Virus record (IMG/VR): IMGVR_UViG_3300009502_000019
Reading direction: 5' to 3' (one strand)
Source: a virus
Taxonomy: Duplodnaviria; Heunggongvirae; Uroviricota; Caudoviricetes
Length of the DNA: 64,000 bases
A program made the position numbers and the translations under genes. Below are positions 13,476-46,620 of this stretch, one piece after another; position 1 is the stretch's first letter, and the number at the start of each line of letters is the position of its first letter. The notes below the pieces were generated by a model. It was not told the DNA's origin. It was given only the letters and a program-made list of their open reading frames with translations, and searched no databases.

Positions 13476-13518
13476 CTCTATATTACGGCTGTTTACGTAA
13501 AAAATTATGATATTTTTT
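13476..13518 (-). promoter_or_regulatory. Conserved ~45 bp promoter-like repeat, copy 1 (AAATATCATAATTTTTTACGTAAACAGCCGTAATATAGAG on the minus strand)
   Basis: One of five near-identical copies (13476, 20666, 27862, 45084, 46578). Each sits 10-35 nt upstream of a start codon, oriented with the downstream gene. Confidence 0.6.
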
Positions 13519-13526
13519 TAAATATT

Positions 13527-15914
13527 TTAGTTCACCTTGACCTCCTCTAGTTCGCCCCAGTTCTTGCCGAACGAGTAATCAAACTTCATAGGCACTTTTA
13601 GCCACGAAAAGCTTCTAGGAAGGTCAATGGAACATACACTGTTCATCTCATGAGCAACATCGTAAAGAGGCTCCTCGGGGCCCTCAAACACTATTGAGTC
13701 ATGGACCGTAAGAATCGTCCTGACGGGTAGCTTATACTTGGCTATGATTCGTCGCATCCTTACCATCGTAAACAAAATCATGTCTGAACTACTGCCCTGA
13801 ACAGGACTGTTTACGGCCTGCCTAGTGATATCATCAGGTACATTGGTTGCTAATACGCCTTTTGCCTCTGGAAACCGGCGCATCCTTCCTGTAGGATACT
13901 CCACAAACCCGCATTTTGACAAAACACGTCTGGTCCTGGCGTACCAGGGTTCAAAACCCGTATACGTTGAGAAGTACGCGTTACGAAAAGCCCTACACTC
14001 TTCAATCGACAACTTAACCCCATACTTCGTCTCTGCGTACACCTGGAACCCTTCTGCAGACTGCCCGTAAACAAAGCCAAAATTGATCCCCTTAGCGATT
14101 TGACGCTGATCCTTGGTTACGTCCTTCTCTGCAACGTGGAGGGCCTTAGAGGCCGTTAAACGATGAATATCATGCCCATCCTGGTAGGCTTGTATCATTG
14201 TCGGCTCCGGAGCAACAGAACAAGCCACCCTGAGCTCCATCTGACTGGCATCTGCCTGAAGCAGAATACATCCGGGAGAGGCCACAAACATCTTCTTTAC
14301 AGCCTTGTCCCTAGGGATGTTCTGGAGGTTTGGCCCTGAGCTGGAAAGCCGTCCTGTGCGGGCACCACAGATATTGAAATTACCGTGAAGCCTACCATCG
14401 TCCTTTATAAGCCCCGGAAGCTTCTCCACATAGGTTGAAAGCATCTTCTCATGCTTACGTATTCTGATTAGATACGTCGCCAGCTTATACCCCTGCCTTG
14501 ACAGGTTCTCAAGAACCTCATTATCGGTACTTAGTAATCCAGACTCTGTCTTCTTGAGAACAGGATATTTCAGTACCTTAAACAAAAGATCACGTAACTG
14601 CTTAGTAGAGCTTAGGTTAACATCTTTTGACTCAGGGTATGTGTCAGCGATAGCCTCATACACGGCCTCGAGCCTTCTGTGAATATCTCCAGCAAGTGCT
14701 GTACTCGCGGCAGTGTCTATGAGAACCCCTTCAAGCTCCATACCAACAATAACCTCAATCATCGGCATCAAAACAGTCTCAAACAGGCTCCACATTACCG
14801 GGCTAAGCCGGATCTCGGGCTCAAACTTGCGAAACAGCCCCATGGTGTTGTTGCAGTCTTCACAGTTGTAAATGCACAGCTTTACCATGTCCTTCGTAAA
14901 CTCGAACATGCACCCATCCAGGTACTCTGCTGACAGCTGCTTAAGGCCTATCGAGTGCCTGTTCTCGTCAAGTAAAAACGCCATAACCATCGTATCAGCG
15001 TAAAAGTTCTTATAGGAAACCCCCATCTTCACGAGAACCTTAAGGTCAAACGCGGCATTGTGTGCGATCTTCTTAGACGGTCCTGACATGACAGTCCTCA
15101 CTAGATCCCAACACTTATCACGGAACTCAATGTTAACGTTCTCAGGATGGTCCAAAGGAACCGAGTAACACTTCCCTCCACCAAGGCCAAATCCGCAACT
15201 CCATAGATTCATCGCCTTGTCAAAAACGTCAAGCATCTCATTAGTCTCAACGTCAAAACTAATGAGCTCTGGTGAGGCCAACACAAGATCGCTATACGCC
15301 GCGGCAAGCTTATCTTCGGTGTCCACAACGATAAAGTTGTTATCCGAACCAAGATCGTTGTGCAGATACCGGTGGGCCGTATTAAGATCTTTTCTAAGCC
15401 TTGGTAGGGAAGTTGGATTACGAATACAATATGCCGGGTCGATAACAGGAAGAAAAGTCATGCCCATAGTCTGCATGAAATTACCGGCCCTACTCATGAT
15501 GCGTTCTTTGGGAAAAAACGCCTCCAGAGCTGCTGCTCCGACAAGCACAACAAGCTTCGGCTTTAGATCCTTTAGCTCATTAAAAAGATACATGCCAGTG
15601 CAAAGCTTCAGAGCCTTCTTCTTTGGAGGCTCATTCGCTGGCGGGTTGCACCGGCATGCGTTCGTAAAAGTTACTTGTGATACGTTAAAACCTACCTGTG
15701 ATAGTGTCTTTCTGAACAGCTTTCCGCTCTCACCGCCAAATGGAACCCCTTCAACAGCGTCAATCCCTGTTGGAGCATCACCAACAACAACTAAATCATT
15801 GTTGCAGGTGTACGAAGGAACAAAAATACGCGACAAGTATGGGCACTTGGCGCATTCTTCTCGCTTAGTTTTGTCTTCATTCTTAGCAGATATGAGCTTT
15901 GCAACATTGACCAC
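13527..15914 (-). CDS. Family A DNA polymerase with N-terminal UDG-like domain and 3'-5' exonuclease
   Basis: 795 aa. PolA motifs: ADASQMELRVAC (motif A), RQIAKGINFGFVYG (motif B), VHDSIVFE (motif C). Exonuclease motif ISFDVETNE. N-terminal ~170 aa has a family-4 UDG-like GDAPTG...GESGKLF motif. Confidence 0.9.
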   Translation of the reverse strand: MVNVAKLISAKNEDKTKREECAKCPYLSRIFVPSYTCNNDLVVVGDAPTGIDAVEGVPFGGESGKLFRKTLSQVGFNVSQVTFTNACRCNPPANEPPKKKALKLCTGMYLFNELKDLKPKLVVLVGAAALEAFFPKERIMSRAGNFMQTMGMTFLPVIDPAYCIRNPTSLPRLRKDLNTAHRYLHNDLGSDNNFIVVDTEDKLAAAYSDLVLASPELISFDVETNEMLDVFDKAMNLWSCGFGLGGGKCYSVPLDHPENVNIEFRDKCWDLVRTVMSGPSKKIAHNAAFDLKVLVKMGVSYKNFYADTMVMAFLLDENRHSIGLKQLSAEYLDGCMFEFTKDMVKLCIYNCEDCNNTMGLFRKFEPEIRLSPVMWSLFETVLMPMIEVIVGMELEGVLIDTAASTALAGDIHRRLEAVYEAIADTYPESKDVNLSSTKQLRDLLFKVLKYPVLKKTESGLLSTDNEVLENLSRQGYKLATYLIRIRKHEKMLSTYVEKLPGLIKDDGRLHGNFNICGARTGRLSSSGPNLQNIPRDKAVKKMFVASPGCILLQADASQMELRVACSVAPEPTMIQAYQDGHDIHRLTASKALHVAEKDVTKDQRQIAKGINFGFVYGQSAEGFQVYAETKYGVKLSIEECRAFRNAYFSTYTGFEPWYARTRRVLSKCGFVEYPTGRMRRFPEAKGVLATNVPDDITRQAVNSPVQGSSSDMILFTMVRMRRIIAKYKLPVRTILTVHDSIVFEGPEEPLYDVAHEMNSVCSIDLPRSFSWLKVPMKFDYSFGKNWGELEEVKVN

Positions 15915-16264
15915 TAGTTACCTGCTAGCTTGGCCAAAATGGGTGAAATAAGATGAAGAAGAAGGCAGGTCATAGCCGCGTAGAAACAGAACGCCGCGGC
16001 AAGACTCCACCACATCATCTGAGGACTTGACTCAGACCAAATCCACCACCATTGACTAATGGTATGTCCAGTGACACAATAAGACAATCCTTCAAACATT
16101 CCCACAAGAGCCGTGATCCCAATCCAAAAGAACGCCCACCAATACTGATGGCAAATGAAACAGATGGCAATCAGGCACACATCAAAAAAGATAAGCCCAA
16201 CCAACCCAATGGTGCTCAATATCGGCTTACTAAATATATTTTTTAGCTTTTCCCGTACGCTCAC
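15914..16264 (-). CDS. Small integral membrane protein
   Basis: 116 aa with about three hydrophobic helices. Confidence 0.45.
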   Translation of the reverse strand: MSVREKLKNIFSKPILSTIGLVGLIFFDVCLIAICFICHQYWWAFFWIGITALVGMFEGLSYCVTGHTISQWWWIWSESSPQMMWWSLAAAFCFYAAMTCLLLHLISPILAKLAGN

Positions 16265-16491
16265 GTGCGATCCTCCTTCTTTGGTATTATATTATTTATA
16301 GCTTCTTTTAGTTTTGCCCGGGCCCAATCCCGGTCCATCTCTACTGACTCCATGTACGAAAACAGACTGTCCTTAGCCGCCTCAGGATCCGTGCTGTACA
16401 GAGCAAACAAGCTGTCTATAAACCGCTCTGTCTTGTTTAGCCAACACGTAGGATCTCCGCCGCAGCATGAATACGGCTTTCGTTCACTCAC
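16261..16491 (-). CDS. Hypothetical small protein
   Basis: 76 aa; start overlaps the downstream gene's stop. Confidence 0.4.
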   Translation of the reverse strand: MSERKPYSCCGGDPTCWLNKTERFIDSLFALYSTDPEAAKDSLFSYMESVEMDRDWARAKLKEAINNIIPKKEDRT

Positions 16492-16667
16492 TTCGTTGCC
16501 TTACAGACGCAAAACTGCTCTACATCCTCTTCTACGCGCCGCTTAAACACAGCAACACCGGGCTCGTACTTCTCGATCTGATCAAAAGCAAACTGAAGCT
16601 CTCTCTTGTTCTCACACCACTCTGTCACCTGACGCACGCAACACCTCCGGTTGATTTATCCACGCAT

Positions 16668-18623
16668 CTATTTTACTAAAATCTTGACTATACTATCCTT
16701 GGCGATGTTCTCGTACGAAAGGTCTATGTCACAATGACCATTTTTAACCTGCTTCCCGTCTTCTAACGAGACGCCTGGGGTAGTGACAATCACAGCGCCA
16801 GCCTTTACGAGAACGTCTTTAAGGCTAATCATATTGGAGTAGAAGTGCAGCATGGACTTCCTGGCATCCTGCACGTAATCCGCTCCGTACGCCGTAATAG
16901 ACTTTCCTATGTACCCTTCGGCAAAATAGAACTTGTTTCCTTCTGGAGACGTTACCAAAAGACCGAGCATCTTCTGCTTATCCTTGATCTTTGACTTCGC
17001 GGTGCATACCACATTATTCGGGTTAACCACGTGGTTTCTTTCCATGCTCTTTGTCTTCTCTGATGCGACGATAATCGTAAACGGAACTTCAAGGCCGGAC
17101 TCGGTCTCACCCCACCCACCGTCACAGTTAAAGTAGTTGAGCATCACGATATACGACGCCTGCTTCTGGTTCTTTACATAAAACAGCTCAGACGCTCCAT
17201 TAGGCCCTGGCGCGTCAGTAACGTCTCCGGAAAACAAAACGTCGCTGTCTCCTGACCTGTAATAGCCATCCCATCCCATCTTGTCACCGTCGCAACGAAT
17301 TAAAGACAAGTCCAGATCAACTCGGTTTTTACCTACGTTACCCCAGTGAACACCTACAATGATATCCTTAGGAACAAACACGGAAGTTCCGGATGGAAGG
17401 TCCCCGGTAAACTGCTTCTCTGTCGTAGGAAGGGAGTACTGAACTCCAGTAGGCAGGTAAATCTTCTTTCCATCGACCTGTGGCTTGATGTCGTTAGCAA
17501 TAGAGTCGACAACCTTGGACAAAGCTGCATCGGCCACGTCCTGCTCTTGAAAGTCGAACTTCGTCGCGAAGCTCTTGCCATTGCGCACCTTATACAAGAT
17601 AGACTCCGCGTCCGTGGTCCGGTACTTTAGTGCATACGCAAGGCGTATTTTTCTGAAGATGTTTGCCTTAGACAGCTCAGCGTCCATAACCTTTGTATTA
17701 AGCCCCGTGCCGGACTTAATCTTTGCCGTTACTGAGTTCAAGTAATCCTCAGGCATAGGCTTGTGATTCTTCACAGCGAGCTTCCGGATCTTATTGATGA
17801 TTATCTTGAGCCCAGGCTTAGTCCTGAATGCCAGAAAGAGTGGCTTAAACCGATAAAAGATCTCAGCAAGCTTCTCAAGCCCATAGCTATCCTTGTACCT
17901 CTTCAGAAGCCCATATACGGCAAGGTTGTCCTTTGTCTTGATGTCAGCTATGGTCATCCTGTCCTTGATAAGCATAGTCGTATTAGTGGACTTGTAGACC
18001 AAGTACCGCAAAAACTCGGTCGGGTCCGAAGGAAGCACATTTGTGAGGTCATAGAGCGCGACCCGTACTTCCTTATTCTTAACTGCAAATATCTCCGCCT
18101 GGCTGAACCCGATGAACGTAATGAGGTCAATGACGTCAACCTTTGTATCATCGCTAAGAGCGATACCAGACCCAAGAAACGTAGTAAGCTTTTCTTTTAG
18201 CTCAGCCTTTGTGTACCCCTTAATTACAGTCAGGCTGACCTTGTCTAGCTTGACTTTAGGAATAGTGAGCTTCTCCGCCGGTATGTAGACAGAGTCCTGG
18301 CTGTACACACCCATGGCCTCAAATCCGTAAGTAGTTATGTAGTGAACAACCTGCTCAAGAAACAGCTGCTCAAGGCTCGCGTCACGGACCTTAGACCACG
18401 ACTTATGAAAAGACGCATTCATCTTGTCACCAGAGAGACCTACTTCTCGTGACACCACATCGACCAATTTCAAGAGCTCCTTTTCAGTGTAGTTACCGGC
18501 GACAACTGGAGAAAAGATAAAACCCTGCCGTACTGTAGCTGTCATAATCTCTTTACTGACGGCGCTTGCTAACCTGCTGTCGGAAACTGGAACTGCTTTG
18601 AACAACCGGATCGATGCTTTCAT
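16668..18623 (-). CDS. Large hypothetical protein; C-terminal region weakly TerD-like (speculative)
   Basis: 651 aa. The segment VDLDLSLIRCDGDKMGWDGYYRSGDSDVLFSGDVTDAPGPNGASE resembles the TerD-domain pattern DLD...SGD..TG.G.GDDE. Confidence 0.5.
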   Translation of the reverse strand: MKASIRLFKAVPVSDSRLASAVSKEIMTATVRQGFIFSPVVAGNYTEKELLKLVDVVSREVGLSGDKMNASFHKSWSKVRDASLEQLFLEQVVHYITTYGFEAMGVYSQDSVYIPAEKLTIPKVKLDKVSLTVIKGYTKAELKEKLTTFLGSGIALSDDTKVDVIDLITFIGFSQAEIFAVKNKEVRVALYDLTNVLPSDPTEFLRYLVYKSTNTTMLIKDRMTIADIKTKDNLAVYGLLKRYKDSYGLEKLAEIFYRFKPLFLAFRTKPGLKIIINKIRKLAVKNHKPMPEDYLNSVTAKIKSGTGLNTKVMDAELSKANIFRKIRLAYALKYRTTDAESILYKVRNGKSFATKFDFQEQDVADAALSKVVDSIANDIKPQVDGKKIYLPTGVQYSLPTTEKQFTGDLPSGTSVFVPKDIIVGVHWGNVGKNRVDLDLSLIRCDGDKMGWDGYYRSGDSDVLFSGDVTDAPGPNGASELFYVKNQKQASYIVMLNYFNCDGGWGETESGLEVPFTIIVASEKTKSMERNHVVNPNNVVCTAKSKIKDKQKMLGLLVTSPEGNKFYFAEGYIGKSITAYGADYVQDARKSMLHFYSNMISLKDVLVKAGAVIVTTPGVSLEDGKQVKNGHCDIDLSYENIAKDSIVKILVK

Positions 18624-18677
18624 TGTGTTTCTCCTGTTAGTGACGAGGCGAACGGTATTTTCTCAGATAGAAGTTTG

Positions 18678-18913
18678 TAGGAACCGTTTATGCCTCTGTG
18701 TTACTGGCGAGAGGTATTTATGCACCCCGAAGGGTGCGCCCATTTTTATTAGGAACCTCTTATGCCAGAAGTTATGCAGCGGGCTGTAGTTCGCTATGTA
18801 TCGAGGCCCCTAAGGGCCTCGTCTGATATGTTAGGAACAGCCTTTGCCGCAATACTGCTGGGGCGGGGAGTATCTCTTTGTCATAGTAAAGTGTATAGGA
18901 ACTCCCTATGCCC
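18678..18913. repeat. Array of four TAGGAAC-N5-T(A/T)TGCC repeats in an intergenic region
   Basis: Copies begin at 18678, 18750, 18832 and 18896 (gtaggaaccgtttatgcc, ttaggaacctcttatgcc, ttaggaacagcctttgcc, ataggaactccctatgcc). Two GC hairpins lie between them (gcaccccgaagggtgcgc followed by cattttta; gaggcccctaagggcctc). Confidence 0.6.
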
Positions 18914-18921
18914 CAAACTTG

Positions 18922-19485
18922 TTATTTTGCTGTCAATGTCAACACGGCCGGATTAACCACACCCTTTGACTCTTTAACTCCCCAGATCTTGTTATGTGCC
19001 TTCCTGATCTTCTCCGCGTTCTTCCTGTTCTTAGCCTTTGCTATCCCAAGAGCAAGTGCACACGCGTACGTGTTACCACTATGACCGTCATCAATAAGTG
19101 AGTCAATTTTCTTTAGTGACCTACCGTTGTCGATCAGTAACGCGATCTTATTACCCTCGTTTGTAATAAAATCATTGTACGCCTTGTCACCGGCCATACG
19201 CTCGTCCTTTGTCTGAAAGTCATTAGCAATACACCACACATGCTCAAATGTGTCGTCTGTGAACACCTCAAACCCGATTACAGTACTCCCCTGGACAGTC
19301 CAGGTCCTGATGAATGCCCCTGGAACTATAATCTTCTCCCAATCCTTCTCCGGATGCCAAAAGTCCTTGCGCTTAGCCCCACTCCAGCTACACCTGTCAA
19401 ACTCAAAGTCTACCTGGCCCTCTCCGTTCCACTGCACCTTAGTTATCTTCTCAATATGCGGTGTAAACATGCTAGATCCTTTCAA
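18922..19485 (-). CDS. Hypothetical protein
   Basis: 187 aa ORF. Confidence 0.5.
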   Translation of the reverse strand: MKGSSMFTPHIEKITKVQWNGEGQVDFEFDRCSWSGAKRKDFWHPEKDWEKIIVPGAFIRTWTVQGSTVIGFEVFTDDTFEHVWCIANDFQTKDERMAGDKAYNDFITNEGNKIALLIDNGRSLKKIDSLIDDGHSGNTYACALALGIAKAKNRKNAEKIRKAHNKIWGVKESKGVVNPAVLTLTAK

Positions 19486-20062
19486 GTATGTAATCTGTGG
19501 ACTTTTTCAAGTCCGTGTTGACCACTTCCTCGTACGGAATCTTGTATAAGCGCAGGAAGCCGCGTATGCTCTCGTCAATCCTCTTCTGAATCTCGTAATT
19601 GGAGTGCCTAAGGTTATCCTTGATCGGAAACTTTTTACCCGGCTTGATGTAAAATACCTTGTCATACGTCTGTGCGGACTCCAAAGTCATGTCTAAGAGC
19701 TCCCTAACCCACATGCGGTCCTTAGGGGACTTCATATCCGCCTTAAACACTCCATAAACGTATGATACGAACACAGGGCTGTCACATACGATGTAGTCAT
19801 ACTGTGTGCTGATGGCGTTTTCTAGAAGCCTGTTCCACGTTAAGAATATTAGCATCTGCTCCGATATGTGCTCAGGGTGCCCATACTTCTCGATGTAGTC
19901 CCTCGGATACTCCAGGATGTACTTCGCGTTCTTGTTCCTGACCTTCAACTGTGTGGCAAGGTTGAGGGCCAGTGTAGTCTTACCGGACGCTGGCGCCCCA
20001 ATCAATGCCACTATTTTTGATTTGGACTGCATAACACTCCTGGAGTAAACGAGTACCCGCAC
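19472..20062 (-). CDS. P-loop kinase, NadR-like ribosylnicotinamide kinase (or a polynucleotide/nucleoside kinase)
   Basis: Walker A IVALIGAPASGKTTLALNLA, then EYPRDYIEKYG and DYIVCDSPVFV. This resembles the NadR RNK-domain pattern SGKSTL...EYGRDYV...DTDFVTT. The true start is probably the internal Met (MQSKSK) near 20032. Confidence 0.45.
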   Translation of the reverse strand: MRVLVYSRSVMQSKSKIVALIGAPASGKTTLALNLATQLKVRNKNAKYILEYPRDYIEKYGHPEHISEQMLIFLTWNRLLENAISTQYDYIVCDSPVFVSYVYGVFKADMKSPKDRMWVRELLDMTLESAQTYDKVFYIKPGKKFPIKDNLRHSNYEIQKRIDESIRGFLRLYKIPYEEVVNTDLKKSTDYILERI

Positions 20063-20226
20063 TTAGGACAAAACTTGTGGTGCTCAAAGTGATCCGCGTT
20101 ACAGTCAGGGCACTTGTTAGACTCCCTAGACGACAAAACTGCTCCACACGTGTTACAAAACTTATCGCCGGACCACGCAAATCCGTGCTGCTTACATGTT
20201 TTTACCGGACAGTATTTCATCTTCAC
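20011..20226 (-). CDS. Cysteine-rich zinc-ribbon small protein
   Basis: 71 aa with multiple CxxC pairs (CPVKTC, CNTCG, CPDC, CPKCG). Confidence 0.4.
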   Translation of the reverse strand: MKMKYCPVKTCKQHGFAWSGDKFCNTCGAVLSSRESNKCPDCNADHFEHHKFCPKCGYSFTPGVLCSPNQK

Positions 20227-20365
20227 TTGGAACCGCTCCTTAACTTTCTGATACGTCTCTTGTATACAGGAGAATCTTTGTAAAACCTCTTATTACACAT
20301 ATAACAAACATAGTATGCGTCATTACTGTGGCCAACTATAAATAGCTTGTGACGCCTGCACCCTG

Positions 20366-20653: not shown

Positions 20654-20665
20654 ATCATCACCTCA

Positions 20666-20708
20666 CTCTATATTACGGCTGTTTTCGGAAAAAATTATGA
20701 TATTTTTT
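20666..20708 (-). promoter_or_regulatory. Conserved promoter-like repeat, copy 2
   Basis: ctctatattacggctgttttcggaaaaaattatgatattttt. Also shares the extended aaaatagttcaaaaaa flank with copy 5. Confidence 0.6.
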
Positions 20709-20742
20709 GAACTATTTTACACGTATAATAAACTAGCAATAA

Positions 20743-22185: not shown

Positions 22186-22340
22186 CTGGTGGCTCCTCTT
22201 GTTTAGCTTGCGGTGCTGCCGGGGGACACCGCTGCATTACCTGCAGCAGCTGAATCCGGCGAATGATCATGTTGTTTAAATGAGCCAACTTGTTTACGTC
22301 GTCCTCAGATGACAGCTTGAATATCACAGCTGTTAAAAGA

Positions 22341-25059: not shown

Positions 25060-25080
25060 TTTATCCCCCTTTTATGTTAG

Positions 25081-27827: not shown

Positions 27828-27861
27828 TAGTCACCTTTCTAGGGGGTTGTAGCATCACACA

Positions 27862-27903
27862 CTATATATTACGGCTGTTTCAAGAAAAAATTATGATATT
27901 TTT
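27862..27903 (-). promoter_or_regulatory. Conserved promoter-like repeat, copy 3
   Basis: ctatatattacggctgtttcaagaaaaaattatgatattttt, upstream of the organiser gene start (27827) with an AAAGGTGA RBS. Confidence 0.6.
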
Positions 27904-28507: not shown

Positions 28508-28586
28508 AGAATCCTCCTATTTTAAGTTATAGAGTATTATACCACGTTTTTGCAACTTTGTCAATACAAATTTTAACATTTTTTTG

Positions 28587-30252: not shown

Positions 30253-30997
30253 TTACTTCTCCTATTTAGTTGGAGCCGGCGAACGGGGCGGCGGGTTCTT
30301 CCACCATGTCCGTCCACTCAAGTGGTATTTCTCCTCATCTGAGGCGGGGTTTTTGGCCATCCCACTGCCGGTCAATTCTGAACAACCGGCCTCTCGCCCC
30401 ACTATCTGTGCGTGTAACACGCCACAGCTCCAAACGATTGGTGGTCTTGGTTCACTGGTTGCGGTCTTTCCCCAAGCATAGTTTAAAAACACCACCAACA
30501 TTAGTTTGTAGCCGTATAGATTGGTACGTTTTTACTTAGCCCCTCTGAGAGTAACGGCCGGGCGACGTTTCTTAGCTGATGGCTACTTCTAAGCCTACAG
30601 CCCAATCACTTTAGGGAGTTTATCCCCTAATAGCACGGTTTCCCGCTATTCGACTACGCAAATTAAAGAGTATCTCGACGTAGGTTTTTCGCTTTAAATT
30701 CCTGTATGAGCGAATAGCGCCTGTAACCTCGAGCTTCAACCCGCCGGCGTCCCGGAATACTCTTTGTCAAATTGTTACCCACAGCACCACATGAGGGTTC
30801 AGTTTCCCGGGGGTTTTATTCGTGCTAACCGGGTATTGGGGCTACGGATACTCTCGCGGGCTAGTTTGCGATCACCGCTGACCATTTCCGACTCCTGTGC
30901 CTACCCTCATACGCCAAGCCGCAACACCCAACGTATTACTCTGGCACGCCCTGATGCTGACACAACCCACCTTTGCCTCCTACGCAACTTTTGTTAT
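30253..30997. ncRNA. ORF-free, GC-rich, structured ~745 bp region; candidate large non-coding RNA of unknown class
   Basis: No convincing ORF on either strand in a genome that is otherwise >90% coding. Long-range complementary segments are visible (GCTATTCG...CGAATAGC, CCCGGG pairs). GC content is higher than the flanks. Confidence 0.3.
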
Positions 30998-31285
30998 TTA
31001 TGCTTTTGGTGTAATCGCTTCTTGACGAGCCTGCTGCCGCTGAGCTTTTTCCTTTTTAAGGTGCCTGAGGATCTCCTTAGCTTTTTTGATGTCTAAGTCG
31101 ATCTTGTCGATAACTTTGTCGCGAAAGTGATGCTTGTGGGCGATCACATATCGCGTCCCGTTTGCTCTGTGTGGGTACACAGCGGAGCTCTCCGCCAAGT
31201 TGATTTCAGAGACACTTATTCCCGCTAGGTCCGCGATTTGCTTAGCCGTTAGACCGAGTGGGTGGTTCTTCGTGTGCTTTACCAT
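30998..31285 (-). CDS. Small HTH DNA-binding protein
   Basis: 95 aa. LTAKQIADLAGISVSEINL helix-turn-helix and a basic C-terminus. Confidence 0.5.
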   Translation of the reverse strand: MVKHTKNHPLGLTAKQIADLAGISVSEINLAESSAVYPHRANGTRYVIAHKHHFRDKVIDKIDLDIKKAKEILRHLKKEKAQRQQARQEAITPKA

Positions 31286-34634: not shown

Positions 34635-34635
34635 T

Positions 34636-39234: not shown

Positions 39235-39395
39235 GTATGACTCCTATATGCCAATTGCCAGTAAAAAAGAGGCTACCGTAGCGCAGCCCCATCCTCTGAC
39301 CGCGTGCGGGTTACTGTCTTGAGCCCAGATGTTCAGCATAAGACATGAAAATATTAGTACAAATCCGGTCCATTTTGCAATTTTAGTTGTAGTGT

Positions 39396-40082: not shown

Positions 40083-40237
40083 GTTACTCCCCTAAAATAA
40101 AGATGGCCGCTTTCGGTGGCTTGGAAGAGACAGCGACGCCTCTACACCTACTAACGGCCAAGACTAATATTCTAGGCATAAAAAGCTGTCCTCCCAAGCA
40201 AAGCAAATCTAGCAGAAACTGATTTCAAAGTCAACAA

Positions 40238-40606
40238 CTATCTTTTAGGATATTCTGGGTACAATTCTTTTACAACAAATGATCTCGCATTCTTTCCATT
40301 GTGTGTGAACAACAATGTGCTGCTGTTGCTAAAGCGAGTAATCCAGTCTAGGCATGCTCCGCATGGAGTAAAGTTAACTCCTTCTGCGTAAACAGCGATC
40401 TCAGCAATTCTGTCTAAAAACGGGCCAGTCATCCTTGATATTGCTCCGACTTCCGCGTGTATTGACGTCATCCATGGGCCTTCGATGTTCCATCCGGTGT
40501 ACACTTTTTTAAAAACAGTGCGAATGGCACACCCAACGTGTATTCCGCTGTGCGGCGCAATCGCGTTTTTGCTGGCTGCACGTGCTTGTTTCATGAGGCT
40601 GTGCAT
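40238..40606 (-). CDS. Cytidine/deoxycytidylate deaminase-family zinc enzyme
   Basis: 122 aa with HAE...PCGAC zinc-ligand motifs. Confidence 0.65.
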   Translation of the reverse strand: MHSLMKQARAASKNAIAPHSGIHVGCAIRTVFKKVYTGWNIEGPWMTSIHAEVGAISRMTGPFLDRIAEIAVYAEGVNFTPCGACLDWITRFSNSSTLLFTHNGKNARSFVVKELYPEYPKR

Positions 40607-40607
40607 G

Positions 40608-40805
40608 CTATCTGCTAACTCCGGCGATTGCCCCTAAGCACTGTGTAATACGAACGTCAAAGTAGACGGCCCATACACCACTCAACAGCCACATAAGTGT
40701 GCCGTGCCATGTTTCTGTTTTAAGTCTACCCCAAACCCAGAACCAAAGTAGGACTGTCACGCTATTTCTCCATTTGTATTTAGAACGCATCCGCACCACG
40801 GGCAA
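40608..40805 (-). CDS. Small membrane protein
   Basis: 65 aa, Trp-rich hydrophobic. Confidence 0.3.
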   Translation of the reverse strand: MPVVRMRSKYKWRNSVTVLLWFWVWGRLKTETWHGTLMWLLSGVWAVYFDVRITQCLGAIAGVSR

Positions 40806-40908
40806 TACACAAACTGTTCGCCCGCATACCTGACTCCATGTGTTGCCAACATGACGAACGCGTCGTCTATGTGTTTGATGTTAGTATTCCATCTATCACA
40901 CGAGCACC

Positions 40909-41226
40909 TCATTTAGGATCCTCCCGCTCTTCTTTTACCCACCGCTTGTTTCCACTACCGTCATCAGCCACCTTCCAGAAGTCTTTTTCAATGTAGAGGT
41001 TGACGCCGGTACACCGATGATGACTGCCATCAAGTTCGTATTTTATTAGCCCGGCTTCGCCACCCTCCGGGTCGTAAATTTCCTGTATTGACGAGTCGTT
41101 CATGCACTTTAGCACCCAGTCCCTTAGCTCGTCAGCAGTTTCAAAGAATTGTATGCTACCTGTGAACCCACCATCATGAACGCGACAGTTAGGAAAGTAT
41201 TCAGTTGAGCAGATGTACTTTTTCAT
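40909..41226 (-). CDS. Hypothetical protein
   Basis: 105 aa ORF. Confidence 0.4.
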   Translation of the reverse strand: MKKYICSTEYFPNCRVHDGGFTGSIQFFETADELRDWVLKCMNDSSIQEIYDPEGGEAGLIKYELDGSHHRCTGVNLYIEKDFWKVADDGSGNKRWVKEEREDPK

Positions 41227-41705
41227 TACGATTCCTGTGCCTTATGCTGGACCTGCAGATCATCAAGCCACTTCGCAGTGTTCTTCAATATAGATACGAG
41301 CTGCGGCTCCATGTTGAACCGCGTGGTGTTGATCTCGATACTCTTCAATATATTGCCGTCGTTGTGGCGCATACTGCTCGACTTCCAGTCACAGAGCATT
41401 TCAAGCACGTCAATGAGGGTCATGTCACTTACACCACCTGGGAAGTGCTCTGGATGATGTCTGCCGTGTGCATAATGGTGCTGCAGCGCCGGATCCATCT
41501 CCTTGAGATACTGTTTATAGGTGTCTGACCCATAGGTACACTTACGCAGTTTCTTAGTGTACAGCTCAAATATCTCAAACTCCGGAGATTCAAGCTTAGT
41601 TTGATCATGCGTTTCCTGACGTTCTAGAAGCTCCCTAATACACGTGTTTAGGTAGTTTCGTACAGTTTCAATATGCCGCATTGTTTTAAACTTAGCTGAA
41701 CTCAT
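41226..41705 (-). CDS. Putative HD-domain-like phosphohydrolase (weak)
   Basis: 159 aa with a His/Asp-rich HHYAHGRHHPEHF region. Confidence 0.35.
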   Translation of the reverse strand: MSSAKFKTMRHIETVRNYLNTCIRELLERQETHDQTKLESPEFEIFELYTKKLRKCTYGSDTYKQYLKEMDPALQHHYAHGRHHPEHFPGGVSDMTLIDVLEMLCDWKSSSMRHNDGNILKSIEINTTRFNMEPQLVSILKNTAKWLDDLQVQHKAQES

Positions 41706-41853
41706 GTTTGATCGTCCTCATGACTAGACTTGAACCTCTGGTTCCACTCCCAGCACGACTTTTTACGCTCATACTCGCGTACGTCGAAGTGGATTGTCAC
41801 ATACTGAGTGTATACGGATTTTGACGGCAGGCAGCTGTTGCTTGTATCAGCGT

Positions 41854-42084
41854 TCATTTTATGCTCTCGGCAGTCTTTCTACCAGCTAGAATAACTTCTT
41901 TAACACGACGCTTTGCCTCATAGAACATGTAATCTATGACGCGTCCTTGAATATCACTGTCGTACTCCTTAGGAACAAGCTCTCTGAGTTCATAGGCCGC
42001 TCCAAGAACAAGCTCATCAATGTGTATTATGAACTCTGTGGCCCGACCACGGTCGCTTATCTCACTTCTGAATGTTATCTTCAC
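41854..42084 (-). CDS. Hypothetical small protein
   Basis: 76 aa ORF. Confidence 0.35.
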   Translation of the reverse strand: MKITFRSEISDRGRATEFIIHIDELVLGAAYELRELVPKEYDSDIQGRVIDYMFYEAKRRVKEVILAGRKTAESIK

Positions 42085-42262
42085 TCTTAGCTCCTTCTAA
42101 ACGTGCAAGTACTTTGGCGCTGTAGACATGCAAAACTCCACGGTCATCTTCAACAACAAAGCGCTCTACTCCAGAGATCTTGTTAAAAGCAGCCACTACC
42201 GTGCCCTCAAATGTGTAGTCTCCGCCGACTTTCTTAACTTTGTCTCCTAGTTTATAATTCAT
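42062..42262 (-). CDS. Hypothetical small protein
   Basis: 66 aa ORF. Confidence 0.35.
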   Translation of the reverse strand: MNYKLGDKVKKVGGDYTFEGTVVAAFNKISGVERFVVEDDRGVLHVYSAKVLARLEGAKSEDNIQK

Positions 42263-42397
42263 TATGCCTTCTTTCCGCCGGAACCCTTGTGGTGGTTTCC
42301 GTCTTCGTGGTACCCCTTGGCACCCTTACGGTTGCGGTACCCGCATGAACACCACTTCTTGCTTGTTCTCTTCAACGGCTCTGCCATAATACCTCCA

Positions 42398-42700
42398 TTA
42401 TTTTGTACAAATAGCTCCACTTTTAAGTATGGTCATTCCCTCAATAGTGACGTCGCATCCGAAGTTAGTTGTACCACCCCCAAGAAACGCTGCGTTCTTA
42501 AGTTTTAGCTTGTTTCCAGTGACTATAGTTACGGGACTGAAGAAGAACTCGTGCCGTTCCTTGTTTTCAAGGAGAACCTTTACGTCCTCGATCCCGCTCC
42601 TGTATCCTTCGGAGTGACTCTTGTGTTTAACGTCTCTTAGTTCTACGTCCGTAAACACGTTGAGACCGAATATCTTCATGCCATCTCCTCCGGACACCAC
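42398..42700 (-). CDS. Hypothetical protein
   Basis: 100 aa ORF. Confidence 0.4.
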   Translation of the reverse strand: MVSGGDGMKIFGLNVFTDVELRDVKHKSHSEGYRSGIEDVKVLLENKERHEFFFSPVTIVTGNKLKLKNAAFLGGGTTNFGCDVTIEGMTILKSGAICTK

Positions 42701-42808
42701 GGGTTAGAGCATATATCATCGAGAGTCCAGTACTCGCCGCATTTGTTGCAGAACTTTACGATTCGCTTAGCTTTGTTAACGTAAGCCTCATGCCACAGTT
42801 TTGTGCGC

Positions 42809-43036
42809 TCAAGCTTCTTTCTTTTCACCACACTCGATCTCCTCTTCTGACTTTAAAATAGTGTCAAAGTGCTCTTTGCAGACAAACATGAAGTCGTTAT
42901 TGTAATCATTCCACCAAACCCTGTAGCACGCCGGATCACCACAGTCAGACCACCCCTCAGGTCCATTGAAAGGAACACCGTACTGGCACTTAGCTAGTGG
43001 CTCAAAATCACAAAAATGATCAGAGTCTTTCGTCAT
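42809..43036 (-). CDS. Cys-rich small protein
   Basis: 75 aa ORF. Confidence 0.35.
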   Translation of the reverse strand: MTKDSDHFCDFEPLAKCQYGVPFNGPEGWSDCGDPACYRVWWNDYNNDFMFVCKEHFDTILKSEEEIECGEKKEA

Positions 43037-43367
43037 TTGCGATCTTTTCCCTTGTCACGTAGCTCGCAGCGGCATCCGTACTCGCAGTGCTCCATGCCGC
43101 ACTCTGGGCATTCACAAAATGAATGTGCCTCTTCGCGGTGTCCGCAAGAGCAGTACTTTTTCTTACACTTACCTAGCTTCTTCATTTAAGACTGCCTCCG
43201 ATCGACTCCGTGTCGCTTCCTCTTGGAGATCTTAATGAAGGTTCCGTCAAAGAGCCTAGGGTTTACCCCGGATTTAGCTATGAACCTGTTTACTATCAGG
43301 CGGAGCTTCTTGTCCCTATCAAAGGCATTCTTTATCTTAAGAGCTTCTGATACACGCTCGCGGAAGG

Positions 43368-43691
43368 TCATCGTGACACCGACACGTCTGCATCCGGGTT
43401 ATCCCGGCAAGCAGCAAGGTACTTCTCAACGAAAGGAACAAAGTTTACGTACAACCCCCAGCCGTTACCTGAGTCAAACCTCTTAAAGTACTCAGGATCC
43501 TTCTTTAAACCCTCAAGGCCAGTCTCAAGTGGGGCTATAAGCTGTGATGCTTTAGTTATGCCGATCTCTTCAGGGCGCCACATACACTCGTAAATACCAG
43601 CCTCTCTAGCCATCTTACCGAGGTTATGTGTAATGTTAGCCGAGTAAACGTCTGTTGGCATGACTTTGGTTAGACGTACGTCGAGGCTCAT
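43368..43691 (-). CDS. Hypothetical protein
   Basis: 107 aa ORF. Confidence 0.4.
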   Translation of the reverse strand: MSLDVRLTKVMPTDVYSANITHNLGKMAREAGIYECMWRPEEIGITKASQLIAPLETGLEGLKKDPEYFKRFDSGNGWGLYVNFVPFVEKYLAACRDNPDADVSVSR

Positions 43692-43850
43692 TTTGTCTTG
43701 TCCTTTATTTTGTACTTGCTGGCTTCCTCTATCAAGTCAATGAGCGTATCCGCAACTGGCCGGCCCATCGCAATGATCTCTTCAAGCTTCTTGGCATACT
43801 CTTTATATGATATTGTCTTTTGCTTTTGTTTTCTCATCCGTTTAGGCATG

Positions 43851-44300
43851 TTATCCTTGATTCGAGGTATTTTTTAGAGGATCCGGTGGCTCGGGGTTGT
43901 GCAGTGTCGGAGGCTCTTTTGCTCGTAGCACTGCATCGTTCATTTCATTCAGTATTCCACCGTTGTACGGGTACGTTGTTGTTCCTACTTGTGTAACAAT
44001 TTTTAGCCTCTGTATGTCGTATCCAGACTGCCCGGTAAGATTTTTTGATAGTTCTGCCAGCATAGCGTCGGCCCAGATGGCTCTTGCTTTAGCTATACAC
44101 ACCGCGCAGTGCTCTCTTGTCCATGCACTAGTATCCACACCTATCCATTTAGCTTTGTCTTCCCACCCTTCCGGCATAATGAAGTGAATCTCTTCAACTG
44201 GGGCAGTGGAGGCCAAGTAGCAACGAAGAGTCTCACCAGTCATGTTCTGCCATGGAAATGGAGATAGGTTTATCATTAGCAGCCTCCTAGGAGCGTGCAC
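43851..44300 (-). CDS. Hypothetical protein
   Basis: 149 aa ORF. Confidence 0.45.
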   Translation of the reverse strand: MHAPRRLLMINLSPFPWQNMTGETLRCYLASTAPVEEIHFIMPEGWEDKAKWIGVDTSAWTREHCAVCIAKARAIWADAMLAELSKNLTGQSGYDIQRLKIVTQVGTTTYPYNGGILNEMNDAVLRAKEPPTLHNPEPPDPLKNTSNQG

Positions 44301-44393
44301 ATGGCCACAGCAAGGACTAAAGTAACAATGTCACCTTTAGTCGCAAACGCCTGGAGCACCAGCACAACACCGATAATGGCCGCCGAGATCTGC

Positions 44394-44633
44394 TTATAGC
44401 TCACGAGGGGTCCTGTCCAGAGAGCACTGGCAGCACATCTGTCTTTTTGTGTTAACCGACTTGATTATCTTTCCGTCAAATCCTCCAGAGCACACTCCGT
44501 AGTCCCCAACTTTTTTCTGGAGACACACACGCTCGGTCACTTCTACGGTGTCATGCCAGCAATGTTTTTTACAACTTGATCTGGTGTCTCTCATCGAATG
44601 ATACTGACCTCTGTGATGTGATACAGCTTGCAC
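44394..44633 (-). CDS. Cys/His-rich small protein
   Basis: 79 aa ORF. Confidence 0.3.
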   Translation of the reverse strand: MQAVSHHRGQYHSMRDTRSSCKKHCWHDTVEVTERVCLQKKVGDYGVCSGGFDGKIIKSVNTKRQMCCQCSLDRTPREL

Positions 44634-44767
44634 TGATTAGTGAAAAAGCGAGTCTTGATGGCTCCTTCTACATTGGTACTCCACACGATCATCATAATAG
44701 CCACCCCAATAACGAGTCCGCCTATAAAAAGCATCGCTGCTACAAATCCATCGTTCATTGTGTTCTC

Positions 44768-45082
44768 CTAATCATTGTTTGGTGGTAGATCAACATCTTC
44801 GAGTCCGCCACTTGTGTTGTTCCACTCATCTGGGAAGAAGTCAGGGATTTCGTCTTTGTTGATAAACCCTTTCCAGAAGTTTGGACCATGTGCTTCGGCA
44901 AATTCTACGATCCACTTTTCCCAAAGTTCAATGCACTCAATTCTTCGTGGATTAAATCTTGCATACTGCACCATTCCATCCGAGTTCGCGTGCATTATAA
45001 GGAAGCCGTTTGGAAACATCTTCTCGAGCGTTGTAAAATCTTTGAAACTGAATCCGGTGTCGTCTTTCATGTGTGCCCTCAT
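44768..45082 (-). CDS. Hypothetical protein (first gene of the minus-strand block)
   Basis: 104 aa. Promoter-repeat copy 4 abuts its start codon. Confidence 0.45.
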   Translation of the reverse strand: MRAHMKDDTGFSFKDFTTLEKMFPNGFLIMHANSDGMVQYARFNPRRIECIELWEKWIVEFAEAHGPNFWKGFINKDEIPDFFPDEWNNTSGGLEDVDLPPNND

Positions 45083-45083
45083 C

Positions 45084-45122
45084 CTATATTACGGCTGTTT
45101 CAAGAAAAAATTATGATATTTC
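45084..45122 (-). promoter_or_regulatory. Conserved promoter-like repeat, copy 4
   Basis: ctatattacggctgtttcaagaaaaaattatgatatttc, immediately upstream of the start at 45082. Confidence 0.55.
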
Positions 45123-45219
45123 TTATTTTTATTTGAATATATTTTTAACTATTTTTTGTAGTAATTGTAACTCGTTATGTATCAACAAGATACAGATACG
45201 AAATAATTAACGATATATG

Positions 45220-45248
45220 TTGACAGTAAGGGCTTACCATGCTAGTAT
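45220..45248 (+). promoter_or_regulatory. Near-consensus sigma70-type promoter TTGACA-N17-TAGTAT
   Basis: ttgacagtaagggcttaccatgctagtat, about 85 nt upstream of the plus-strand gene at 45333. Has the same TTGACAgTAAG core as the promoters at 50336 and 57730. Confidence 0.7.
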
Positions 45249-45332
45249 CCTCTCACGGTCAAGGTTGACCGGGCAAAGCAGTACAGCGGCACGGTAGGGG
45301 TAATCCCCACAGTAGCCAAAAGGAGAAACACA

Positions 45333-46508
45333 ATGGAGCTCTTCAAAGCGTCAAATCAGTGGGCAACACGTCCGTCAGATGAACGTTTCTGGGACCTCAA
45401 CGAAATGCAGCAAGCGTGTGAAGGGTACAAGCAGTCCGCGCAAGAAGTGCAAGTGAAGTATTCAGACCTACGGTTTGAAGCAGACGGCAGCGAGATCTTT
45501 GTTTCCGGAAAAGCTCGTATACCAGCCAAGCTTACGAACTGGGCGTTCGGCCAGGTCTGTCAGAAGGTTAACGCTCCTGCAAGCTATCTCCGCACACTCC
45601 CATCAACCCTCGCAGTCCAAAACCTTAACCATGGCTTTACCAAGCCAATTGATGAGGAAGAAAACTACGCCAAGCTTATGTTCCATAAAAATGGCAGCTT
45701 GGTTCTTCGTGCAGCAACTTCGCTCAAGTACAAGCGCGTTTGGAACGCGGACATTATCAGCAGCCTCCAGAGGTATGTTCCGATGGGGTGGCAGGTTCCG
45801 CCGGCACGTCCTGCCGGTGTTAAGAACGAACGTACCCGTATCGCAACAAGCGCAGACGTTCTCCGTCTGCAGAAGGGTGGCTTGTCCATCAATGAAGGTG
45901 ACACGATCGCACCGGCCGGACTCTACGCCTCCGATCACGACATGTTCGTGTTCATGGTTAACGAGACTAATCCGGTAAACGATGGTACCGGTCACGGCCT
46001 CGGGCGCGGGTTCTTCCTCTGGAACTCTGAGGTTGGTGCTGCCAGCGTAGGTGTCATGTCGTTCCTGTACGACGCGGTGTGCGGGAACCACATTGTTTGG
46101 GGTGCCAAAAACGTCGAAGAGGTCCGCATCCGCCACATCGGCAATGCCGACACCAAGGCGTTTTCGAGCATTCGCGCTGAGTTGATCAGCTACGCCAACT
46201 CTTCGGTATCTGATCTTGAGGCACAGATCCGCAAGGCACGTGCTTTTGAGTTCGCCGGACCTGGTGCCAGCAAGGAAGCGGTTGTTGAGGCTGTTATCGC
46301 GTTTGCCGTGAAGGCCAAGGCCCCACTCTCTCAGAAGATCATTGCCGATGCCTACGATGTGGCCGTCAAAGAAGAGCGCTACGGCTCTCCTCGGTCAGCG
46401 TGGGCGATCGCCAATGGCCTCACTGAGCTCTCTCAGGAGTGCACTTACACTGACGAAAGGATCAAGATCGACAGGGCTGCCGGCAAGGTCCTGGAAATGG
46501 TGTTTTAA
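45333..46508 (+). CDS. DUF932-family (phage/plasmid-like) protein
   Basis: 391 aa and GC-richer than its surroundings. Pattern resembles the DUF932/TIGR03299 family (…GFFLWNSEVGAASVGV…). Confidence 0.6.
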   Translation: MELFKASNQWATRPSDERFWDLNEMQQACEGYKQSAQEVQVKYSDLRFEADGSEIFVSGKARIPAKLTNWAFGQVCQKVNAPASYLRTLPSTLAVQNLNHGFTKPIDEEENYAKLMFHKNGSLVLRAATSLKYKRVWNADIISSLQRYVPMGWQVPPARPAGVKNERTRIATSADVLRLQKGGLSINEGDTIAPAGLYASDHDMFVFMVNETNPVNDGTGHGLGRGFFLWNSEVGAASVGVMSFLYDAVCGNHIVWGAKNVEEVRIRHIGNADTKAFSSIRAELISYANSSVSDLEAQIRKARAFEFAGPGASKEAVVEAVIAFAVKAKAPLSQKIIADAYDVAVKEERYGSPRSAWAIANGLTELSQECTYTDERIKIDRAAGKVLEMVF

Positions 46509-46517
46509 TAGTTAGGC

Positions 46518-46567
46518 CAAATCGTCTGCGGGGTATCGGGGGGTGCCCCGCAGACGATTTGGCCTAT
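46518..46567. terminator. Perfect 19-bp-stem hairpin (GGCCAAATCGTCTGCGGGG...CCCCGCAGACGATTTGGCC); likely terminator or RNA-processing site
   Basis: Perfect inverted repeat with an 11-12 nt loop, directly after the DUF932 stop. Confidence 0.7.
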
Positions 46568-46577
46568 CAAAATAGTT

Positions 46578-46620
46578 CAAAAAATATCATAATTTTTTCC
46601 GTAAACAGCCGTAATATAGA
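46578..46620 (+). promoter_or_regulatory. Conserved promoter-like repeat, copy 5 (plus orientation)
   Basis: aaaatatcataattttttccgtaaacagccgtaatataga, upstream of 46635 with a GAGGGGAAG RBS. Confidence 0.6.

Follow-up and report, generated by a model that had tools for sequence, protein, structure and literature searches.

A five-copy promoter-like element in an uncultivated phage of about 202 kb, with a phage-encoded sigma factor as its candidate reader

The DNA stretch analyzed here (64,000 nt of the IMG/VR record IMGVR_UViG_3300009502_000019, a virus of the class Caudoviricetes; hereafter, the window) contains five nearly identical copies of a 42-bp element, each of which lies between genes and faces the next gene start. 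The sequence and placement of this element indicate that it is very probably a promoter and, most likely, one of a phage-specific class that is separate from the adjoining host-type promoters. The explanation that we consider best overall, giving it about an even chance, is a phage-specific promoter class with a sigma factor encoded by the phage itself as the most likely reader. The window covers the region for replication, recombination and nucleotide metabolism in the genome of a large and novel phage, about 202 kb in size, that is known only from metagenome assemblies.

Sequence, copy number and placement of the element

Alignment of the five copies yields two invariant blocks of 17 and 16 nt (AAATATCATAATTTTTT and AAACAGCCGTAATATA), with four variable bases between them and NNN-TG after the second. 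Read from 5' to 3', the element thus consists of an AT-rich flank, block A (AAATATCATAATTTTTT), the four variable bases, block B (AAACAGCCG-TAATAT), five bases and a conserved T|G. A search for the 18-mer AACAGCCGTAATATAGAG with up to three mismatches retrieves five sites in the window (Table 1), compared to 0.06 +/- 0.24 matches expected from shuffled sequences, and none of the 100 shuffles reaches five. The position weight matrix (PWM) derived from the copies scores them at 74-84 bits and the rest of the window at 15 bits or less, so that they form a discrete five-member set and not the top of a graded family. The motif scan covered about 89 kb of the genome, and no further copies, weak ones included, were found in the window or in the approximately 25 kb of recovered flanks (9.6 kb on the right and 15.2 kb on the left).

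All five copies are intergenic and oriented toward the next gene, and each is followed, 10-35 nt downstream, by a start codon with a Shine-Dalgarno (SD) sequence. Non-coding DNA accounts for 6.9% of the window, and 4.0% of 47-nt segments are wholly intergenic; the probability that five of five copies fall between genes is about 1e-7, the agreement of all five in orientation not yet counted. A preliminary description of this DNA, prepared from the letters alone, had reported five near-identical copies that abut and face gene starts, and both observations are borne out by these counts; its coordinates for the copies are within 2-4 nt of our delimitation. The extended flank that it had noticed in copies 2 and 5 was recovered as well, as AAAATAGTTC. 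In contrast, its spacing of 6 nt between TTGAAA and TAATAT applies to copies 3 and 4 but not to copies 1, 2 and 5, because this stretch falls within the four variable bases.

Outside this phage, the element leaves few traces. The 16-mer AAACAGCCGTAATATA produced 41 single matches in IMG/VR, all of them unrelated and lacking block A, and the element pattern with 21 specified bases had no matches in JGI metagenomes or GTDB genomes. Strain variation, examined as a test of selection, gave no signal, all contigs of the same phage being at least 99.95% identical to the window.

A second promoter class and its candidate reader

Reading of every intergenic region, combined with a consensus scan, identified host-type sigma70 promoters in the same region (Table 1); hence, the standard consensus is evidently in use in the host, and one promoter class of the phage is host-type. 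These promoters combine TTGAC[A/T] with TGn, whereas the five-copy element has neither, and the two sets of features never mix, which makes the element a second, separate class. The canonical sigma70 -35 is lacking in the element, the hexamer located 17 bp upstream of TAATAT being ATAATT. None of the five copies was listed by the consensus scan with TAATAT as the -10; for copies 3 and 4, it returned just 9/12 matches with CATAAT in that role. Within TAATAT, T-12, A-11 and T-7 are kept in all copies, and the bases that precede it, GCCG, lack the TG of an extended -10.

In the mechanism that we propose, a specificity factor encoded by the phage would direct the host core RNA polymerase (RNAP) to the element. 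Block B, with its G/C-rich tetramer followed by TAATAT, would be the melting or -10 region, and block A would occupy the -35 position, with an AT-rich, UP-like flank further upstream. Transcription would start at the conserved T|G, 5-6 nt past TAATAT, placing the 5' end of the mRNA at or just before the SD, with leaders of 10-33 nt. A T-G dinucleotide, that is, a pyrimidine(-1)/purine(+1) context, is found 5-6 nt downstream of TAATAT in 6 of 7 copies when the two copies of a relative described below are counted. The SD sequences of copies 2, 4 and 5 (GAGGTGA, GAGGG and GCGAGGGG) begin exactly at the predicted start, and a start further downstream would truncate them.

Several other assignments were considered and rejected. 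With TAGAGT, TATAGT, TAGGAT or TAGAAT taken as the -10, the start would fall beyond the SD, and this assignment fails in copy b of the relative, where TAGAGG is found. A sigma32-like promoter is not indicated, with CTTGAAA in two copies only and no CCCCAT; the pattern TGAAAC...CGTA of extracytoplasmic function (ECF)/sigmaW-like promoters has a spacing of 3 nt; and a sigma54 site would contain GG-N10-GC, which is absent.

The gene between copies 4 and 5 encodes a DUF932-like protein with thousands of homologs. At about 160 loci around DUF932 homologs of 31-65% identity, the element is absent. The only relative with a recognizable version is L055, from a 215,958-bp scaffold, with a 79% identical DUF932 protein and about 72% nucleotide identity in the shared genes; a relative at 81%, L059, is a 2.3-kb contig that ends inside the region. 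The two L055 copies are TAAAAGTTTTTTCCAGTTTGAGGCTAATATA|TATTG (copy a) and TAAAATTTTTTCTCAATATGAGGCTAATATA|GAGGAGG (copy b), which can be summarized as (A/T-rich)TTTTTTC-N11/12-(GAGGC)TAATATA or as T6C-N11/12-GAGGCTAATATA. Copy a heads the left arm, in the same place as copy 4, and copy b lies behind a duplicated sigma70 promoter, in a tandem arrangement. The two phages share an A/T-rich box ending in TTTTTTC, an interval of 11-12 bp and TAATATA; the G/C-rich tetramer in front of TAATATA and the upstream box are uniform within each phage but differ between the two. The sigma70-type promoters of L055 stay at the host consensus. Uniformity within a genome and divergence between genomes, together with an unchanged host-type class, are expected if the recognition factor is encoded by the phage and co-evolves with the element.

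The preliminary description had suggested looking for a sigma factor or an RNAP of the phage itself. A sigma gene is indeed present, just beyond the window, whereas no RNAP gene was detected; this and the other negative results on gene content given below rest on Pfam matches of called genes in about 100 kb of the genome. The sigma gene encodes a 185-aa protein (L066:19053-19610) about 8 kb to the left of window position 1, in the same direction of transcription. With a TIGR02937 score of 59.2 bits (cutoff 42.9) and a Sigma70_r4 match at 1.5e-8, the protein is, by its sequence, a bona fide sigma70-family factor. The AlphaFold (AF2) model, built with 29 homologs (predicted local distance difference test score (pLDDT) 88.9), comprises sigma2 (11-105), a disordered linker and sigma4 (121-184), with no sigma3 (region 3) domain. 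The top PDB matches are sigma factors, and in Foldseek and profile searches, the nearest ones are sigmaB, SigF, FliA/WhiG and sigmaS, with ECF sigmas behind; the sigma4 domain is closest to SigB/F/G and FliA/WhiG. The protein belongs to a small family that is restricted to phages, with 30 representative clusters at E<=1e-10, all of 185-210 aa, and four word-index matches; IMG/VR contains only weak matches. An ortholog with 48% identity (L156:2437-3003) occupies the same syntenic slot in another relative of about 215 kb, between a protein with an MJ0330_N domain and the portal operon. No strong terminator was found between the sigma70 promoter at about 10.8 kb and the sigma gene, the first strong one being located just before the portal operon, and host RNAP could thus make the sigma early.

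This 185-aa sigma is the most likely reader of the element, although we put their pairing slightly short of an even chance. Consensus sigma70 promoters located on the same arm would provide the first transcripts of the sigma gene, and its product would then switch on or boost the five units as a 'middle' program of small accessory, replication and nucleotide-metabolism genes, with copy 1 feeding back into the transcription unit of the sigma itself. More tentatively, the element might be the cognate promoter of a new family of sigma2-sigma4 phage factors of about 185-205 aa, encoded in a fixed slot in freshwater and peat phages of about 200 kb with T4-type portal, recombination and single-stranded DNA-binding protein (SSB) genes; the box on the -35 side would co-evolve with the sigma4 helix, and TAATATA would stay fixed. 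If so, these phages would possess a self-contained switch for middle genes that is unlike the MotA/AsiA and gp55 solutions of T4. The phage-specific promoter envisaged in the preliminary description is well supported by context, namely by the position of the copies at the heads of units (copy 5 after a strong terminator and copy 4 in the divergent region, as expected of promoters), their co-orientation, their distinctness from sigma70 promoters, the positional homolog in the relative and the presence of a sigma gene in the phage. The late flavor of that proposal, with its comparison to the T4 late promoter TATAAATA, is not supported: the units headed by the element contain replication, nucleotide-metabolism and small accessory genes, and no full copy lies upstream of the portal operon.

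Several points weigh against pairing the element with this sigma. The promoter activity itself is something that we infer, and the motif scan reached less than half of the genome (just ~89 kb of ~202 kb). The conserved blocks of 17 and 16 nt exceed the normal lengths of -35 and -10 elements, which suggests an additional DNA-binding protein and leaves room for an activator or a T4-middle-like mechanism. Should the sigma read copies 4 and 5, the small-gene clusters that head both arms would be without an early promoter, an unusual arrangement. The sigma gene borders the structural module and may encode a late-gene sigma with another target. The 300-nt region upstream of the portal operon lacks the full element. 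The diverged motif is known from L055 and the sigma ortholog from L156, which may be different phages. Finally, the resemblance to sigma28 promoters (see below) is partial, with AGGC instead of GCCG in the relative.

A partial match, T6-GTCC-GCCGTTATAC, is located in the 300 nt that precede the portal operon. The 9-mer GCCGTWATA occurs eight times in the scanned DNA, five times in the elements, twice in coding sequence and once before the portal operon, where its chance occurrence is estimated at about 0.002. This hints at a -10 half common to the element and the pre-portal site; the T-tract, however, is 5 nt closer, a shift that is normally not tolerated by a sigma, and the architecture is different. 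In the corresponding contig region (L152:16242-16545), a strong terminator with a 16-bp stem is followed by the element-like CATCTTTTTTGTCCGCCGTTATACTTATTTGG, with the closer T-tract, and about 20 nt separate the GTG start from TATAAATG, which agrees with the T4 late promoter at 7/8 positions. Together, these two sites may constitute a late promoter region.

Among the alternatives, the main rival is a mechanism like that of T4 middle promoters, in which the sigma70 holoenzyme would use TAATAT as the -10 and an early phage protein (MotA/AsiA-like, an appropriator or a class II activator) would bind a box at about -30/-35. We rank the phage sigma ahead of this combination, which we regard as unlikely. 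TAATAT fits TAnnnT, and the box AAnTTTTTTC, kept between the two phages, ends 11-12 bp upstream of it; in T4, the MotA box is located 12 +/- 1 bp from the -10. The phage has T4-type gp32, UvsX, gp46/47-like, endonuclease VII, RNA ligase and portal genes, the genes behind the element are of the kinds served by T4 middle promoters, and the conserved blocks extend beyond sigma contacts. Early and middle promoters of T4 often occur in tandem, as does the L055 element behind its sigma70 promoter, and a 178-aa helix-turn-helix (HTH) protein is encoded in the window at 48218-48754. However, the annotated genes of about 100 kb include no MotA_activ, MotCF or AsiA domain, the TGCTT of the MotA box, (a/t)(a/t)(a/t)TGCTT(t/c)A centered at -30, is missing (the box in its place is ATAATTTTTTC), the HTH gene lies downstream of copy 5 itself and is not obviously early, and the sigma of the phage would still need a target. 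An improbable variant dispenses with phage factors: the copies would be plain early promoters for unmodified host RNAP, without a -35, that rely on TAATAT and an AT-rich UP element and owe their conservation to recent duplication. In this phage and in the relative, the AT-rich flank, with AAAATAGTTC, is also found ahead of the -35 of sigma70-type promoters, copies 4 and 5 stand at the head of clusters of small genes that look early and for which no other head promoter is present, and the CATAAT matches in copies 3 and 4 point, weakly, in the same direction. Yet the -35 and TGn that the element lacks are present in the evident sigma70 promoters of the phage, sigma70 would not require the invariant, GC-rich CAGCCG spacer, and the version in the relative has diverged with its sigma70 promoters still at consensus.

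An RNA-level role for the element, also raised in the preliminary description, found no support and appears similarly improbable. Transcription would start upstream, at CATAAT in block A or by read-through, and block B (AAACAGCCGUAAUAUAGAG) would be a 5' leader, either a target of a phage translational repressor or RNase or a stabilizer. Such a role would agree with the direct abutment of block B and the SD in 4 of the 5 copies, with the 5/6 match of CATAAT to a -10 and the weak -35-like hexamers 16 nt upstream of it, with the location of L055 copy b wholly inside the predicted leader of the upstream sigma70 promoter, and with the lack of terminators after the genes upstream of copies 1-3, such that read-through RNA would include these copies. 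However, the copies with their flanks have no stable or common structure (fold z-scores of +0.47, +0.12, +1.46, +0.45 and -0.37), and Rfam at the gathering threshold detects only tRNAs, with spurious miRNA-type matches on the terminator hairpin for copies 4 and 5 at E<=5. A leader of this kind might yet be unstructured and bound by a protein, a form for which no positive evidence was seen. The variable distance of 13-35 nt between block B and the start codon does not suit a translational operator well, copy a of the relative has no CATAAT at the equivalent place, and block A, the AT-rich flank and the placement after a terminator would go unexplained. The least probable reader is an RNAP of the phage, single-subunit and T7-like or of another kind, for which block B would be a recognition sequence of about 17 bp ending in TATA, with the start at the next G. 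The promoters of T7, SP6 and K11 are of similar size and share the layout of an AT-rich stretch, a specificity region, TATA and a +1 G; block B, at 16 nt, ends in TAATATA followed by G in 4 of the 5 copies, a start at this G keeps every SD in the transcript, and the near-perfect conservation is typical of phage-RNAP promoters. Against this stand the absence of any RNA polymerase domain among the annotated genes of about 100 kb, the T at the would-be +1 in copy 3 and in copy a of the relative, and the pattern of conservation, which stops at TAATATA, with none downstream of +1, and extends upstream to about -45, leaving block A and the UP-like flank without a role. Polymerases of this type are not known from large phages whose portals are T4-type.

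If the assignment to a phage-specific promoter class is correct, the element marks five starts of transcription units in an uncultivated phage lineage of about 200 kb, and the separation of the host-type and phage-specific promoters gives a first outline of its temporal program. The 185-aa protein and 42 bp of DNA would be a concrete sigma-promoter pair that could serve as an orthogonal expression module. Although its sequence is new, as is the likely sigma family, the element is of a familiar kind: conserved phage-specific promoters are common in phage genomes and would not surprise a specialist. The element is useful for annotation and ordinary for a phage.

Transcription units and other features of the phage

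The genes of the window are arranged in a leftward arm from about 45.1 kb and a rightward arm from about 45.3 kb, and copies 1-3 are located between genes, at cluster boundaries along the leftward arm. The positions of the copies and of the host-type promoters, and the units that the copies head, are listed in Table 1. Copies 4 and 5 form inverted repeats (45080-46623) around a self-contained 1.45-kb cassette, in which the DUF932 gene, equipped with a sigma70 promoter and a structured leader, is followed by a bidirectional terminator. Among the metagenome contigs, several (L042, L052-L054) start or stop inside copies 3, 4 or 5; the repeats are thus long enough to fragment short-read assemblies.

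Table 1. Copies of the five-copy element and host-type sigma70 promoters in the window
Feature	Position	Strand	Match to 18-mer AACAGCCGTAATATAGAG	Sequence	Context
Copy 1	13474..13515	-	13476-13493	Block A AAATATCATAATTTTTT, ACGT, block B AAACAGCCG-TAATAT (13485..13480)-AGAGT-G; predicted start G 13474	Directly after PolA stop codon (13527); heads 157-aa gene (GTG 13448), gp32-like SSB and more genes
Copy 2	20664..20705	-	20666-20683	Variable bases CCGA; upstream flank AAAATAGTTC; predicted start G 20664	SD GAGGTGA begins at predicted start; ATG 20653; heads 95-aa gene, AAA_28 ATPase and more genes
Copy 3	27860..27901	-	27862-27879	Variable bases CTTG; TAATATATAGTG	ATG 27827; heads cluster of replication initiator (Lin1244_N), DnaB-like helicase and primase; consensus sigma70 promoter (28536-28564) and endonuclease VII gene lie upstream
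Copy 4	45080..45121	-	45082-45099	Variable bases CTTG; TAATATAGGATG	Divergent intergenic region; heads whole leftward arm; first gene 100 aa (ATG 45070, GAGGG before ATG); homologous element at same position in relative L055
Copy 5	46582..46623	+	46604-46621	Variable bases CCGT; flank AAAATAGTTC; TAATAT 46612-46617; predicted start G 46623	18 nt after terminator hairpin with 20-bp stem (46515-46564); heads rightward arm; first gene 73-aa SWIM zinc-finger protein (ATG 46635)
sigma70 promoter	28536-28564	-		TTGACA-N17(TGG)-TATAAT	
sigma70 promoter	45220-45248	+		TTGACA-N17(TGC)-TAGTAT	
sigma70 promoter	50336-50364	+		TTGACA-N17(TGA)-TAGAGT	
sigma70 promoter	10765-10792	-		TTGACT-N16(TGC)-TAGCAT	
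sigma70 promoter	40206-40234	-		TTGACT-N17-TAGATT	

The phage has no close relative in INPHARED by Megablast, and its PolA is only about 30% identical to the best match. By exact-protein look-ups, several metagenome assemblies from ENA and Logan were found to contain the same phage, with at least 99.95% identity and contigs of up to 202,599 bp. The replication and recombination genes of the window encode PolA with a UDG domain, DnaB-like helicase, primase, a Lin1244-type initiator, gp32-like SSB, UvsX-like recombinase, fused SbcD-SbcC, two endonucleases VII and RNA ligase; NAMPT, PRPP synthetase, dCMP deaminase, an RtcB fusion, GroES/GroEL and nine tRNAs are encoded as well. Unusual gene content is found in window regions 1-4500, 6905-9850, 13527-15914, 52199-54358 and 62226-63700. 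Among the peculiarities of the window are GroES and GroEL (cut by its left end), a peptide deformylase with an SEC-C motif, the SbcD-SbcC fusion in a single chain of 981 aa, the N-terminal location of the UDG domain in PolA, and an RtcB ligase fused to a PhoH-like ATPase. The tRNA array includes five Leu and two Arg tRNAs, and a lone tRNA-Met is located at 25080. The left flank reaches the portal gene, which lies beyond the window and is T4-type, with a product of 2039 aa, intein sequence included.

A GC-rich region of about 0.5 kb (30502-31000) is without a convincing open reading frame (ORF), and public gene calls leave a 1-kb gap; no structured RNA was found there, with no Rfam match at E<=1 and a fold z-score of +0.07. 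The 178-aa HTH protein, encoded on the plus strand inside the copy-5 unit, has a C-terminal HTH (HTH_28, 1.4e-6; HTH_23, 2.3e-6; weak Sigma70_r4); as a possible DNA-binding regulator, it is a candidate activator for a T4-middle-like mechanism. The 651-aa ORFan at 16668-18623, considered as a hidden polymerase, had no PHROG or Pfam match and no meaningful one among PDB sequences (a single hit at E=0.94).

Two structured elements were encountered. The 298 nt upstream of the 651-aa ORFan (18624-18921, minus-strand sense) contain four tandem paralogous hairpins of the form NNGGCA(T/A)A-NNNN-GTTCCTA ... (A/T)AC-N'N'N'N'-CGCCN'N', in which the stems differ between units but complementarity is kept. 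The array folds at -102.3 kcal/mol, compared to -73.1 +/- 5.4 for shuffled sequences (z = -5.45; 0 of 200 shuffles as good), and has no Rfam match; it could be a structured leader, a non-coding RNA array or single-stranded DNA (ssDNA) hairpins of an origin or primosome site. The other element is a leader hairpin of the DUF932-like gene (45333-46508, 391 aa), located at 45288-45317 on the plus strand (GGCACGGTAGGGGTAATCCCCACAGTAGCC), with the invariant core CACGGTnG...CACAGTnG. Among 57 distinct DUF932 upstream regions, taken from metagenomic phages that differ widely, 27 carry this core 10-25 nt before the SD, 7 of them with the halves in swapped order. In an alignment of 18 sequences, compensatory double changes are seen at 6 of 12 pairs, and the outer-stem pairs are never broken. 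With no Rfam match, the hairpin is a candidate new cis-regulatory RNA (or ssDNA) element. In a distant relative from IMG/VR, whose DUF932 protein is 54% identical (L049:6438-7397), a 64-nt repeat that contains TTGACA-N17-TAGAAT, 6 nt before the ATG, is present three times; it looks like a host-type promoter that gives essentially leaderless mRNAs.

Comparison with known promoter systems

Each of the known systems shares some features with the element. The promoters of T7-group RNAPs likewise come in near-identical copies, with a block of about 17 bp that ends in TATA followed by G and abuts the ribosome-binding site; here, however, about 100 kb of annotated genes revealed no RNAP gene, the block is preceded by another conserved one and by a UP-like flank, positions +1 to +6 are not conserved and two copies, one of them in the relative, lack the +1 G. 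In SPO1, the phage sigmas gp28 and gp33/34 redirect the host core RNAP to bipartite phage promoters, in a cascade that proceeds from early promoters read by the host sigma; the consensus is unrelated and the host lineage is different, and nothing here points to two successive phage sigmas. The late promoters of T4, which depend on gp55, carry TATAAATA at the -10, have no -35 and serve late genes, unlike the element, which has TAATATAG and serves replication and accessory genes; TATAAATA itself occurs three times in the window, against 1.25 expected.

The middle promoters of T4 are closer in layout. In both cases, a good TAnnnT -10 without a -35 is accompanied by a conserved box that lies about 11-13 bp upstream of it, the genes served function in replication and recombination, and sigma70 early promoters are found in tandem with the class; T4-type replication, recombination and portal genes are also shared. 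The differences are in the box, which is AAnTTTTTTC here and TTTGCTTTA, at -30, in T4, in the conservation, which here covers the spacer up to the -10, and in the proteins: this phage combines a PolA-type polymerase with a sigma70-family sigma, and no MotA or AsiA homolog was detected.

The promoters of group-3 sigmas are similarly bipartite, with an A/T-rich -35 and a G/C-rich motif that abuts an A/T-rich -10. For FliA (sigma28), a published table of sites gives TAAAGTTT-N11-GCCGATAA (PMC4183435). The element, as ATAATTTT-N11-GCCGTAAT, agrees at 5/8 and 5/8 positions with identical spacing, which is a resemblance and not a test; the version in L055 is AAAAGTTT/AAAATTTT-N11-AGGCTAAT. At the -10, CGA, the hallmark of sigma28, is replaced by CGT, GCCG is AGGC in the relative, and the phage sigma, without region 3, is not a FliA ortholog.

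The gp36-dependent promoters of phiEco32 differ from the element in that the conserved sequence here extends over about 42 bp in two blocks, compared to a single short element, and in the genes served: the phiEco32 class is middle/late and depends on gp36 with the co-factor gp79, whereas replication and accessory genes are served here, no gp79-like partner was identified and the pairing with a sigma is putative. The gp36 consensus is AATGTA centered at -11.5 (PMC12276001), and AATATA occupies the same place here, again a resemblance rather than a test. Otherwise, the organization is alike: phiEco32, a lytic phage, combines consensus sigma70 early promoters with a second class that has no canonical -35, and this second class is read by a small, diverged phage sigma that acts on the host core RNAP, with an N-terminal domain that reads the -10 and a C-terminal domain that binds the -35 region.

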